From Arenicellales bacterium (lineage in GTDB: Bacteria > Pseudomonadota > Gammaproteobacteria > Arenicellales > CBDCFT01), in assembly GCA_965216735.1 (NCBI GenBank), contig OZ244198.1, positions 3,009,208 to 3,073,207 of the forward strand: 64,000 nt of DNA, read 5' to 3'. This document shows, one piece after another, positions 22,074-31,828 of this stretch (the first letter of the stretch is position 1; every line of letters starts with the position of its first letter). The notes beneath the pieces were generated by a model. It did not search any database. It was not told where the DNA came from and saw only the letters and a list, made by a program, of their open reading frames with translations. Position numbers and translations under genes: made by a program.

Positions 22074-24266
22074 ATGGCTCGCAACCCAAAGCACGACATA
22101 CTTTTTGAACCCATCCAAATCGGCCCAAAGACATTACGGAACCGGTTTTATCAGGTTCCTCATTGTAACGGCGCCGGGTCGGACCGCCCCGGCTTCCAGG
22201 CGGCCAACCGCTCAATAAAAGCCGAAGGCGGCTGGGCCGGCATTAACACGGAATACATTTCCATTCACCCAGAATCGGATGACACCCATCGTATGTCGGC
22301 GCGTATGTGGGACGAGGGTGACGTGCGCAATCTACGCGCGATGACCGAGGCCATCCATAAGCACAATTCGCTGGCCGGCGTGGAAATGTGGTATGGCGGG
22401 GCTCACGCGCCTTGTATGGAATCGCGGTGTACGCCGCGCGGTCCGAGCCAGTATGCCTCCGAGTTCGAGATGCTGACCTACTGCCATGAAATGGATCTGG
22501 ACGACATCGCGATGGTTCAGCAGTTTTATGTTGACGCGGCGCTGCGCTCGCGTGACGCGGGATTTGACATTATTTATGTATACGGTGCGCACTCCTATCT
22601 GCCACTGCAATTCCTTTCTCCTTATTACAACAAGCGCACCGATAGTTACGGTGGGTCACTGGAGAATCGCGCCCGCTTCTGGGTCGAAAGCCTGGAAAAA
22701 GTCAGAAAAGCCGTCGGTGACGACTGCGCCATCGCCACCCGGTTCGCGGTGGACACACTGTATGGCGAGAGTGGGATCGAAGTCGAGCGTGACGGCATCA
22801 AGTTCGTCGAAATGGCCGACCCCTTTGTGGACGTGTGGGATGTCAACGTCGGTGACATTGCCGAGTGGGGCGAAGATGCCGGTCCGTCCCGCTTCTACCA
22901 GATGGGACACCAGATTCCGTGGCAGAAACACATCAAGACGGTTTCCAAGAAACCGGTGCTCGGTGTCGGCCGCTTCACCGATGCGGACAAGATGGTTGAA
23001 GTCATCCGCGCCGGCCATCTGGATATTATCGGCGCCGCCCGGCCGTCCATTTCCGACCCGTTTTTGCCCAACAAAATAGATGAAGGCCGTATCGACGATA
23101 TCCGTGTCTGTATCGGTTGCAACGTGTGCATCTCGCGCTGGGAGATTGGTGGCCCACCCATGATTTGCACACAAAACGCGACGGCAGGCGAAGAATACCG
23201 TCGCGGCTGGCACCCGGAAAAGTTTCCCAAGAAGGGTTCGGACGACTCCATTCTGGTGGTCGGTGCCGGCCCATCCGGAGGCGAAGCCGCACGGGTGCTG
23301 ATGGAACGTGGTTACACCGTACATCTTGTTGATTCAGCAGAGAAGATCGGCGGTTGTGTCAACGACATCGCCACCCTGCCCGGCCTCGGCGAGTGGGGCT
23401 ACCATCGCGACTATCGAGAGACCCAGCTCGAAAAGCTGGTGAAGAAAAACAAAGACTCTCAGATTGCGCTTGGCGCCAACGCCATGACTGTTGACGACGC
23501 GCTCAATTACGGCGCCGACAAGATCATTGTTGCCACCGGTTCTTCCTGGAACACTGACGGTACCAATGCACTGCTGCACGATCCGGTCCAAGGTATCGAC
23601 GCCAGCTTCCCGACCCACTTGACACCTGAGCAGGTTTTTGCTGGCGATAAGGAAATCGGCAAAAAAGTCGTTATATTAAATTGCGACCGTTATTTCATGG
23701 CACCCAGTATCGCCCAATTACTGCGTGAAAAGGGCCACGATGTCACCATCGTTGACGGCGCTGGTGTGGGTCACTACATGGACTTTACCCTGGAAGCCCC
23801 TAATATGCACCGCATGCTGCATGAACTGGAAATCGAGGTGATCGGTGATGTATGGGCATCTTTGGCGGAAGCTAACCGTATCCAGACTTATCCGATCTTC
23901 GGCGATGGCTACCGCCGCGAGTATCGTGGACCCGGCAAGCTACCGCGAAGAGAAAACACCCATTTTGATTGGGTGGAATTCGACTCCCTAGTTTTGGTCA
24001 CGGGCCGTCATTCCAATGATGAGTTGTATCGCGGTCTGAAAGCACGTAAGGACGAGTGGGCCGACAATGATATCAAGGGTGTGTATGTCATCGGCGATGC
24101 CTGGGCACCAAAATTGATAGCCGACGCGACCTTCGAAGGCCATCGAATCGCCCGGGAGATCGAAGAGGATAATCCGCAGTTTCCGCTGCCGTACCGACGC
24201 GAAGTTGCGGTGTGGGGCGCGCCGCACATGCCGGGCGGTAAGTACGAGATCGAATACCAGGAATAA
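22074..24266 (+). CDS. tmd: Trimethylamine dehydrogenase (6-S-cysteinyl-FMN, 4Fe-4S)
   Basis: Closely follows the Methylophilus TMADH sequence: [30 protein letters not shown] (Cys30), Tyr60, [29 protein letters not shown]...C. Confidence 0.95.
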
Positions 24267-24322
24267 TCGATTCGCAAATCGCGAGGTCGGAAATACCGGC
24301 CCGCATGCAACGCGACAGACCA

Positions 24323-24347
24323 CGTCAGCGCCCATTGGGCGCTGACG
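24323..24347. other. Perfect GC-rich hairpin in the tmd-downstream spacer
   Basis: CGTCAGCGCCCA-T-TGGGCGCTGACG, no U-tract. Confidence 0.7.
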
Positions 24348-24487
24348 CATGTATACGCCCAATACATCGCGAGGCAACCGATGCGATGCTGCTACATCGT
24401 GCCACTTGAAGCGCGGCATTTCTCCGTTAGCGCGAACATTTAGGCTGAATTTTGGAAACTTTGACCAGTAAGACGACTGAGTAGGCC

Positions 24488-31242: not shown

Positions 31243-31265
31243 CAATCATCACGAGGGTATAAGAT

Positions 31266-31376
31266 ATGTCGGAATTCTGGGGTTTTGCGGGTGCGGATAT
31301 ATTGGCCACTGCGCTCATTTTTGGTTTGTGTGTCATGTGCTTATACCAGGCCAGAACCTGGGTAAAAAAGCTTTGA
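31266..31376 (+). CDS. 36-aa single-pass membrane peptide (below the ORF-track cutoff)
   Basis: MSEFWGFAGADILATALIFGLCVMCLYQARTWVKKL*; GAGGG RBS upstream; fills the operon gap. Confidence 0.65.
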   Translation: MSEFWGFAGADILATALIFGLCVMCLYQARTWVKKL

Positions 31377-31414
31377 CATAGCACACGTACGAATGAACAC
31401 AGCGATGATGCGTC

Positions 31415-31828
31415 ATGAGTGAATTAACCGGGGGTTGTCTATGTGGCGAGGTTCGATACCGCACGAAAGGTACGATACACAAGGTGGTTCATTGCCACTG
31501 TAGCATGTGTCGCAAACCGAGCGGCGCTGCATTCGCGACGTTTGTCGGATTATTTGACCGTGATGTTAGTTTTACAAAAGGAACACCGATGCCCTATCGT
31601 TCATCCGCCAATGGGGTGCGCGGTTTTTGCGCTCGCTGCGGCAGTTCGTTGACTTTCAAAGATGAAAACGACCCAGATATGCTTTGGCTGACGATGGGCA
31701 GTCTGGATCAACCAGATGCCGTCAACCCCGGTGAACACTGGTTTGCGGCAGACAAGCTGAGCTGGCTACATCTTGATGATGATTTGCCCCGTTACCCGGC
31801 GTACGGCAATACCTCCGAATCCGAGTAG
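31415..31828 (+). CDS. GFA/CENP-V family (glutathione-dependent formaldehyde-activating-like) protein
   Basis: GGCLCG, HCHCSMCRK, RGFCARCGS zinc motifs. Confidence 0.9.
   Translation: MSELTGGCLCGEVRYRTKGTIHKVVHCHCSMCRKPSGAAFATFVGLFDRDVSFTKGTPMPYRSSANGVRGFCARCGSSLTFKDENDPDMLWLTMGSLDQPDAVNPGEHWFAADKLSWLHLDDDLPRYPAYGNTSESE

Follow-up and report, generated by a model that had tools for sequence, protein, structure and literature searches.

How does a bacterium take up trimethylamine (TMA), and where do the electrons withdrawn from it go? The partnership of trimethylamine dehydrogenase (TMADH) with its electron-transferring flavoprotein (ETF) is the textbook model of interprotein electron transfer, and TMA, a major methylated amine of the marine carbon and nitrogen cycles, is also a medically relevant gut metabolite. 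In open-access papers and preprints, as far as their text was available, we found no statement on the destination of the electrons of the W3A1 ETF. Both questions are raised by a locus in the genome of an Arenicellales bacterium (assembly GCA_965216735.1), assembled as one contig (98% complete, GC content 49.3%). The stretch analysed, referred to below as the window, comprises 64,000 nucleotides (contig OZ244198.1, positions 3,009,208 to 3,073,207 of the forward strand), of which positions 22074-31828 hold nine genes beginning with tmd. An initial annotation had interpreted these nine as a complete O2-independent pathway leading from TMA uptake to respiration. Our analysis points to an eight-gene module within this interval, from tmd to a 36-aa open reading frame (ORF) (22074-31376), which probably imports TMA and feeds its electrons to the respiratory chain.

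Proteins of the window were classed by Pfam and NCBIfam, and homologous loci were read by tblastn. All nine co-oriented ORFs of the initial annotation were recovered on the + strand, with Pfam families in agreement:

22074-24266, + strand: tmd, trimethylamine dehydrogenase (FMN, 4Fe-4S and ADP-binding domains), 730 aa; 1djn_A match and Pfam.
24488-26617, + strand: EtfD/DgcB/FadF-type membrane Fe-S protein, possibly with heme b, 709 aa; Pfam Fer4 and two CCG domains, 9ojn match.
26626-27996, + strand: LRV/HEAT-repeat protein, 456 aa; Pfam LRV, LRV_2 and HEAT.
28117-28914, + strand: etfB, W3A1-type ETF beta, 265 aa; Pfam ETF, 1o94_C match.
28914-29876, + strand: etfA, W3A1-type ETF alpha, 320 aa; Pfam ETF and ETF_alpha, 1o94_D match.
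29891-30943, + strand: DMT/EamA permease, candidate trimethylamine importer, 350 aa; Pfam EamA.
30946-31242, + strand: winged-helix protein, 98 aa; model fold, fused to the permease in some species.
31266-31376, + strand: single-helix membrane peptide, 36 aa; conserved motif among homologs.
31415-31828, + strand: gfa, GFA-domain protein, 137 aa; Pfam GFA.

The gaps between them are short, measuring, in order from tmd to gfa, 221, 8, 120, -1, 14, 2, 23 and 38 bp.

The first gene anchors the reading. Its product aligns over its full length with the TMADH of Methylophilus methylotrophus W3A1 (1djn_A; 1298.8 bits, residues 2-729 on 1-728), the next-best solved relatives being histamine dehydrogenases at about 520 bits. 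Pfam recognises Oxidored_FMN (337.5 bits), OYE-like_second_a-b (192.6 bits) and Pyr_redox_2, and the three-domain TMADH architecture is present, with an OYE-type FMN barrel carrying 4Fe-4S and two ADP-binding-type domains. In the alignment, the following residues are identical to those of 1djn_A: Cys30, which we take to be the 6-S-cysteinyl FMN site; Cys345/348/351/364, presumably the 4Fe-4S ligands; Tyr169, His172 and Asp267, presumably catalytic; Tyr60, Trp264 and Trp355, which we take to form the aromatic bowl; Ser74 and Trp105; and Val344 and Tyr442, presumably the ETF-docking pair. Tyr60, Ser74 and Trp105 differ in dimethylamine dehydrogenase (DMADH), so that they would mark specificity for TMA over dimethylamine (DMA). 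Gene 1 can be assigned with confidence, from these features, as a true trimethylamine dehydrogenase (EC 1.5.8.2).

The ETF encoded downstream belongs to the same system. The best PDB match of EtfB is W3A1 ETF beta (1o94_C; 333.1 bits, residues 1-264), those of EtfA are W3A1 ETF alpha (1o94_D, 379 bits), and alpha-Arg237 is kept. A second, housekeeping ETF is encoded elsewhere in the genome, and its EtfA is 32% identical to that of the block. Genes 4 and 5 are predicted with confidence to encode the W3A1-type ETF matching the TMADH, that is, the classical TMADH-ETF pair, as the initial annotation had proposed. By homology, the dehydrogenase would convert TMA to DMA and formaldehyde without O2 and would reduce the high-potential, non-bifurcating W3A1-type ETF of the block in one-electron steps.

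Are the remaining genes tied to this pair? We scanned one genome per species, obtained 186 stretches with TMADH relatives and used the best 80, which are 74-95% identical; loci with enough sequence to be evaluable numbered 75 for the Fe-S gene and 61 for etfBA and the LRV gene. The Fe-S gene lies within 3 kb downstream of tmd on the same strand in 74 of 75 evaluable loci, and etfB and etfA lie downstream on the same strand in 59 of 61; the exceptions are L063, without the Fe-S gene, and L019 and L063, without etfBA. The order tmd, Fe-S gene, (LRV gene), etfB, etfA recurs across many families, its carriers including Methylophilaceae, Methylophaga, Hyphomicrobium, Methyloceanibacter, Paraburkholderia, Ferrovum and Steroidobacteraceae. 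Among them are the cultured Methylophaga lonarensis, Methylovorus mays, Hyphomicrobium zavarzinii and Paraburkholderia sacchari. Given these frequencies, the core is a conserved unit, and its gene order recurs far more often than chance would allow. The neighbourhood search that had been suggested, with Tmd, the 709-aa protein, the LRV protein and the permease as queries, upheld the tmd/Fe-S/etfBA core and, as shown below, the trio formed by the permease and the two small ORFs; it left the LRV gene as optional and removed gfa (1 of 80 loci).

The core is patchily distributed among bacteria and is a paralogous counterpart of the dgcAB-fixAB operon. According to the available text of PMC12093977, the latter comprises dgcA, a flavin oxidoreductase of the TMADH family, dgcB, a membrane Fe-S protein, and fixAB, the ETF subunits. 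The parallel that had been drawn with the Pseudomonas dgcAB-etf layout is borne out, since a flavoenzyme, a membrane Fe-S/CCG protein, and ETF beta and alpha follow each other in the same order.

The LRV gene, which separates the Fe-S gene from etfB in 28 of the 61 evaluable loci and was not found in loci of the Steroidobacteraceae type, is an optional, dispensable accessory. Its product consists of repeats throughout, without a Cys cluster motif, and Atlas and NCBIfam return generic repeat families only. A predicted complex of the LRV protein with the soluble part of the Fe-S protein (residues 290-709) scored 0.00 against a mark of 0.32, a result that is uninformative either way. As a separate observation on the variability of these clusters, riboflavin and GTP-cyclohydrolase genes (folE2, ribBA, ribH) are interleaved with the tmd cluster of L041, Methylophaga lonarensis (4330-6308 and 17526-18032), where they perhaps supply FMN/FAD for TMADH and ETF.

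The near-universal companion of tmd and etfBA, the 709-aa Fe-S protein, is the candidate for the next step. Its best sequence match in the PDB, and its only strong solved relative, is EtfD of Mycobacterium smegmatis (9ojn; E = 4.8e-76). A structure model built on 31 orthologs (mean predicted local distance difference test score, pLDDT, of 70) matches the fold of 9ojn over 742 columns, with template-modelling (TM) scores of 0.66/0.63 (E = 1.6e-25), while the other fold matches are partial: LutA and HdrB cover the CCG part only and NarI the membrane part only. Cluster ligands were mapped through the residue numbers of the EtfD paper (PMC13083937) and a phmmer alignment, which begins at residue 292. 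The presumptive ligands of the two cubane 4Fe-4S clusters, C313, C316, C319 and C388 for one and C323, C378, C381 and C384 for the other, align to EtfD Cys301/304/307/422 and Cys311/412/415/418, respectively; all eight are invariant in 72 distinct orthologs, and Arg318 is present at the position of EtfD Arg306. Ligands of the noncubane (D2) cluster are found as H537, C587, C622, C623, C662 and C665, corresponding to EtfD His583 and Cys637/672/673/709/712. Conversely, the ligands of the linear 3Fe-4S (D1) cluster (EtfD Cys503/538/581/584) are replaced by D463, N498, Asp and Ser; DgcB and FadF likewise do without them, according to the available text of PMC13083937. Within the membrane domain, which lies outside the phmmer alignment, H84, H247 and H265 are invariant in the 72 orthologs, H84 and H247 being near the EtfD heme ligands His78 and His241 by position, and the predicted N-terminal helices fit a five-helix membrane domain with bis-His heme b, as in EtfD. 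DUF3483, the N-terminal domain of DgcB, gave no Pfam match at E<=0.001 in the 709-aa protein, whose partner is TMADH and not DgcA.

Taken together, the sequence features identify gene 2 as a full-length EtfD/DgcB/FadF-type membrane Fe-S protein. Its previous classification as FadF/DgcB/EMO-type holds as to the family and is strengthened by co-conservation with tmd and etfBA; "EMO", however, is a misnomer in a ubiquinone maker. UbiA scores above its cut-off in the genome and no MenA match above cut-off was obtained there, so the acceptor would be ubiquinone, probably not menaquinone. EtfD has been demonstrated to link ETF to quinone (PMC13083937, in the text available), and the 709-aa protein is probably the carrier of TMA electrons to the quinone pool, a predicted ETF:ubiquinone oxidoreductase. 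In the mechanism we envisage, it would reoxidise ETF at its noncubane 4Fe-4S (CCG) site and pass electrons through the two cubane 4Fe-4S clusters to heme b in the NarI-like five-helix membrane domain and on to ubiquinone. The proposal that this conduit replaces the classical ETF-quinone oxidoreductase (ETF-QO) does not hold, as the genome encodes both an ETF-QO (PF05187, 168.9 bits) and the housekeeping ETF elsewhere; no further EtfD-type gene of full length turned up in the genome. The 709-aa protein would instead provide an extra, TMA-dedicated route running beside the ordinary ETF/ETF-QO pair.

Some observations temper this assignment. The noncubane ligand Cys665 is Asp in 51 of the 72 orthologs, the heme ligands are placed by position and invariance, and the model of the Fe-S protein is of moderate quality (pLDDT 70). 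Moreover, the first potential of the W3A1 ETF is extremely positive, according to the available text of PMC12630350, which may make ubiquinone reduction uphill, in which case the true acceptor could differ; the same property may equally explain why a dedicated oxidase exists. The protein might perform Hdr-like disulfide chemistry or serve another high-potential acceptor. CCG domains are common to heterodisulfide reductase, LutA and GlpC, the semiquinone couple of W3A1-type ETF is very positive (PMC12630350, text as available), and an ETF-QO already exists in the genome. We nonetheless consider this alternative improbable, as the modelled fold is that of full-length EtfD down to its NarI-like membrane domain, the cubane ligands and two membrane-domain His do not vary among the orthologs, and adjacency to etfBA is near-universal, EtfD and DgcB themselves being tied to ETF.

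The second question, that of uptake, leads to the permease and the two small ORFs behind it, for which a separate sample of 80 metagenome loci was recruited by family alignment. With 48 representatives at E<=1e-30 among 1.84 billion, the permease family is compact, and the best 120 homologs of the permease are 58-100% identical, come from very different phyla and are at most named "DMT family transporter". Of the 80 metagenome loci, 77 have the 98-aa gene behind the permease and 67 keep the 36-aa gene. Homologs with conserved motifs (75 distinct for the 98-aa ORF, 60 distinct for the 36-aa ORF) indicate that the two small ORFs are genuine genes. Roughly one in four of the permease homologs listed is some 458 aa long; both long homologs inspected (P0031 and P0066) are permeases fused to a 98-aa homolog, and the same fusion occurs in L124 and L134/135. 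The 98-aa protein is modelled as a winged helix (pLDDT 95.8), whose nearest folds are RosR, PadR and MarR at TM scores of about 0.6-0.66, none at E<=0.001. Judging from these fusions and motifs, the 98-aa protein is to be regarded as a subunit of the permease or its C-terminal domain in detached form, and the 36-aa ORF as a conserved membrane peptide of the same transporter module. DNA homology to the nearest clusters (L102, L103, L027) extends up to 31376, the last position of the 36-aa ORF, and no further. The two small ORFs, counted initially among three uncharacterised accessory proteins, belong with the permease to a single transporter module.

What this module carries is suggested by its neighbours. 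Among the 80 metagenome loci, tmm adjoins the permease in 26 and etfA in 16, both being present in two (L134, L135), and within the tmd loci the permease was detected by tblastn, anywhere in the locus, in 11 of 80. Of 400 other genomes sampled across the phylum, one holds the permease, and there the trio stands directly after tmm (824 bits against the 675-bit Tmm equivalog cut-off). A quick maximum-likelihood tree of 80 distinct permeases places the tmd-linked ones in two well-separated supported clades of 10 and 12 rows, and 22 of the 23 tmm-linked ones in a third clade of 26 rows. Relatives of about 340-365 aa occur in Methanococcoides (two paralogs on one contig), Methanosarcina and Methanomethylophilaceae. 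MttP is a predicted TMA permease of methylotrophic methanogens according to three papers, as far as their text was available. The designation "mttP-like" agrees with this, in that the family is found in methylamine-using methanogens and is linked to TMA-oxidising genes; the permease may be a counterpart of MttP. As the TMADH, Tmm and methanogen contexts share TMA, import of TMA is the preferred function, and we consider it rather likely that the permease, the winged-helix subunit and the 36-aa peptide would act as one transporter importing TMA (TMAH+).

Other cargoes deserve consideration. Many DMT/EamA transporters are exporters, 24 of the 80 distinct permeases stand in other contexts (C1/folate genes, ammonium transporter, phospholipase C), and the trio also occurs beside sarcosine-oxidase-like genes, or beside PAS proteins together with phospholipase C. 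In place of this permease, other tmd loci encode one of the APC family, which was not found in this genome, and the present locus also has an ABC system; these points count against TMA import. The trio could export DMA, which might have to leave a cell whose genome shows no recognised DMA-oxidising enzyme, or could carry another methylated amine or a quaternary ammonium compound, one whole permease clade lying beside phospholipase C, aldehyde dehydrogenase and PAS proteins in a choline-like context. We regard this alternative as unlikely: the commonest neighbours, TMADH/ETF and Tmm, share TMA as substrate and differ in their products (DMA versus trimethylamine N-oxide, TMAO), and relatives of the permease occur in TMA-consuming methanogens.

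Two further observations concern the surroundings of the trio. In L161, L163, L169 and L175, which form a separate clade, a PAS_3 protein of about 480-540 aa precedes the trio and phospholipase C follows it, a setting that may point to choline or phosphocholine and to a PAS-type regulator in common. In L027, the closest complete cluster, the stretch behind the 36-aa gene (19993-21114) holds four ORFs of 92-94 aa in tandem; the one tested had no Pfam family.

Does the ninth gene belong to the module? A gfa homolog is present in 1 of the 80 tmd loci, at another position in that locus. The gene has a flank-like GC content at third codon positions (GC3) of 0.53, matches the broad Pfam GFA domain (87.2 bits), reaches 17.9 bits with the Gfa equivalog model TIGR02820, whose cut-off is 234.55 bits, and has 14 further GFA-domain paralogs in the genome (15 in all). 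Its inclusion in the unit is contradicted by its rarity, host-like GC3, equivalog score and paralogs alike; gfa is a local bystander and not a component of the module. On the same grounds it was rejected as the formaldehyde handler of the block. Treating 22074-31828 as the unit thus proved both too wide, in that gfa falls outside, and too narrow, since the conserved neighbourhood extends to the following genes:

31887-32996, - strand: GcvT/DmmD-like folate-binding aminomethyltransferase-fold protein; Pfam GCV_T and GCV_T_C.
18516-21775, + strand: NarQ-like histidine kinase, NarL-type response regulator and PAS-GGDEF protein; Pfam and NCBIfam.
33391-38206, + strand: Peripla_BP_6-type ABC transporter; Pfam.

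The candidate for formaldehyde capture is the GcvT-like protein, which scores 241 bits to the C-terminal half of TMAO demethylase; in 48 of the 80 loci a homolog lies no more than 10 kb from tmd. Its identity is 64-70% with the tmd-adjacent genes of the nearest relatives and 44-49% (44% for Methylophaga) with DmmD of the Methylophaga and Steroidobacteraceae loci, where a dmmDABC cluster follows tmd. DmmA, DmmB-like and DmmC proteins were not found in the genome with Pfam families and tblastn. With no dmmABC found by these searches, the GcvT-like protein is not classed as DmmD; it is predicted from its sequence to trap formaldehyde, probably as methylene-tetrahydrofolate, which would enter the serine cycle encoded in the same window.

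The window holds, at 1679-7160 (- strand), a serine-cycle-like cluster with a 2-hydroxyacid dehydrogenase, two succinyl-CoA-ligase-like (malate thiokinase-like) subunits, an HpcH/malyl-CoA-lyase-like protein and a class-V aminotransferase, which fits a methylotroph assimilating formaldehyde via folate. A methylenetetrahydrofolate reductase lies at 49014-49892 (- strand), and an aldehyde:ferredoxin oxidoreductase at 58369-60372 (- strand; AFOR, 468 bits), the latter being surprising given the organism's ubiquinone and serine cycle. At 17430-18309 (- strand), a 103-aa ORF with the GcvT C-terminal barrel only, possibly a broken gcvT-like gene, overlaps a 208-aa ORF without a Pfam match.

The other product, DMA, is left unprocessed by the block. 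No TMADH paralog above 45% identity was found in the genome, where four paralogs lie at 40-45%. DMADH is about 63% identical to TMADH, and none of the four was accepted as a clear DMADH by that general figure, no DMADH sequence having been compared. With neither DmmA/DmmC nor a close TMADH paralog found, the term "complete" is unjustified: the block encodes the first demethylation only, TMA to DMA and formaldehyde, and DMA may be released or handled by another enzyme. It follows that the original picture, in which nine genes including gfa form a complete O2-independent uptake-to-respiration pathway with Gfa handling formaldehyde and ETF-QO replaced, is very improbable. The genes are indeed co-oriented with short gaps, a GFA domain is present, and NapA makes nitrate respiration conceivable; against this, gfa occurs in 1 of 80 loci, scores below its equivalog cut-off, has host-like composition and lies beyond the point where synteny stops, no DMA step was found, and ETF-QO is encoded elsewhere in the genome. 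The module as we propose it would have the LRV gene as an option and gfa as a neighbour only. At the level of the genome, paralog families are sizeable (15 GFA-domain genes, about 16 GcvT-like genes and four TMADH-family genes at 38-43% identity), and an N-methylglutamate-synthase-like gene about 60 kb upstream of the window shares 80% identity with its Methylophaga counterpart; the impression is of a specialist in demethylation.

Whether the eight genes are transcribed as one operon is a separate matter. A consensus scan returned 3 promoter-like sites against 9.1 expected from shuffles and 10 terminator-like sites against 13.9, and the gaps of 221 bp (tmd/Fe-S) and 120 bp (LRV/etfB) could hold internal promoters, which detracts from the single-operon view. 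Several clustered transcription units (tmd; Fe-S-LRV; etfBA-permease-98aa-36aa; gfa) would preserve the functional link, and in Methylophaga and Methylophilaceae the transporter trio is upstream of tmd, often on the opposite strand. We hold this arrangement to be possible, if on the doubtful side: the consensus scan placed no + strand terminator-like site in either gap, and in other loci, e.g. L048, tmd is separated from the Fe-S gene by only about 4 bp. When the upstream regions of tmd were compared in 9 loci, the Shine-Dalgarno GGAGGAAC was the only common element, and no operator-like motif was found.

The block has probably been acquired horizontally. The genes from tmd to the 98-aa ORF have a GC3 of 0.62-0.68, whereas that of the flanks is 0.47-0.56; no close ortholog of the block was found in the same-genus genome, where the best match is 49% identical; and a 95% identical TMADH occurs in a genome of another family of the same order, 3.85 kb of DNA matching there at 81% identity. 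This combination is most simply explained by horizontal acquisition. Mobile elements in the window include two tandem copies of a tyrosine integrase plus an IS91-type Y2 transposase, with identical Pfam scores and within a stretch of 57% GC (43264-47881, + strand), as well as a DDE transposase (8428-9366).

The flanking genes offer candidates for regulation and for further uptake. In 20 of the 80 loci, a homolog of the response regulator (50-60% identity) is encoded no more than 10 kb from tmd, in most cases accompanied by the kinase and the GGDEF protein. At 290.2 bits the regulator passes the NarL cut-off of 250 bits, and the kinase matches NarQ positions 302-560 only (208.5 bits against a cut-off of 553); the NarQ-like kinase, the NarL-type regulator and the PAS-GGDEF protein are probable regulators. 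NapA is present in the genome and NarG was not found there, which makes nitrate-linked TMA use possible. The binding protein of the ABC transporter has homologs (50-71% identity) syntenic with tmd in 8 of 80 loci, has only distant PDB relatives (best E = 3.7e-11) and returned no NCBIfam match; the Peripla_BP_6-type transporter is a further candidate for uptake. At 9909-15876 (- strand), a hybrid histidine kinase of 1201 aa that carries a TorS sensor domain stands beside a Peripla_BP_6 protein and two receiver proteins; this sensor of TorS/TorT-like type lies about 7 kb from tmd and might respond to TMAO or a methylated amine.

Already known are TMADH with its ETF, and EtfD, DgcB and FadF as ETF partners. 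In the open-access papers and preprints searched, we found no description of the tmd/Fe-S protein/etfBA cluster, of a DMT-type TMA transporter in bacteria, or of the present cluster as a whole, in keeping with the earlier view that the full arrangement is uncharacterised. Two predictions emerge: a specific protein, singled out by conserved gene order, as the physiological oxidant of W3A1-type ETF, and a family of three-part TMA transporters. The broader proposition, that the trio is the general TMA importer of bacteria and, as MttP, of methanogens, and that the EtfD-like protein is the missing oxidant of W3A1 ETF, is put forward tentatively, as a fair prospect that falls short of probable. If true, the trio would have been recruited independently by TMADH, Tmm and methyltransferase pathways, with the winged helix as a transporter-bound sensor or gate, and the EtfD-like protein would show the one-electron transfers of TMADH reaching ubiquinone via a noncubane Fe-S site and heme b. 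A transporter family tied to TMADH and to the widespread Tmm, and apparently common with methanogens, would mark TMA uptake. The pathway picture is also corrected, the organism encoding the first demethylation only.

How does the module compare with known systems? With the W3A1 TMADH-ETF (PDB 1djn, 1o94) it shares an orthologous dehydrogenase and both ETF subunits, with the catalytic, Fe-S and docking residues kept; it differs in that a membrane partner, an LRV gene and a transporter are encoded alongside. In the open-access literature, as far as its text was available, we did not find the W3A1 system linked with any of these three, and the W3A1 relatives Methylovorus, Methylobacillus and Methylotenera carry the same core cluster. 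The dgcAB_fixAB operon of Pseudomonas aeruginosa and Vibrio natriegens has the same sequence of a TMADH-family Fe-S flavoenzyme, a membrane Fe-S/CCG protein, and ETF beta and alpha, and DgcB lacks the linear 3Fe-4S ligands as the 709-aa protein does; there, however, the substrate is dimethylglycine instead of TMA and the transporter is of the BCCT rather than the DMT type, whereas here an LRV gene is inserted and the DUF3483 match is missing.

Mycobacterial EtfD (9ojn; PMC13083937) resembles the 709-aa protein in its whole-length fold, its two cubane and one noncubane sites, its NarI-like domain and its two conserved His, and the function, ETF to quinone, is presumably the same. It is distinguished by its length (1042 aa against 709), a disordered C-terminal region found only in EtfD, the linear 3Fe-4S ligands that are replaced here, menaquinone in place of what is probably ubiquinone, and a partnership with beta-oxidation instead of an amine dehydrogenase. 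Classical ETF-QO would perform the same task, from ETF to ubiquinone, as an unrelated protein, the present route being added to it and not replacing it. Finally, MttP/MtbP, the predicted TMA and DMA permeases of methylotrophic methanogens, are putative counterparts in that DMT-family proteins from such archaea fall in the same compact family as the permease; the bacterial form is distinctive in being accompanied by a winged-helix subunit and a 36-aa peptide.

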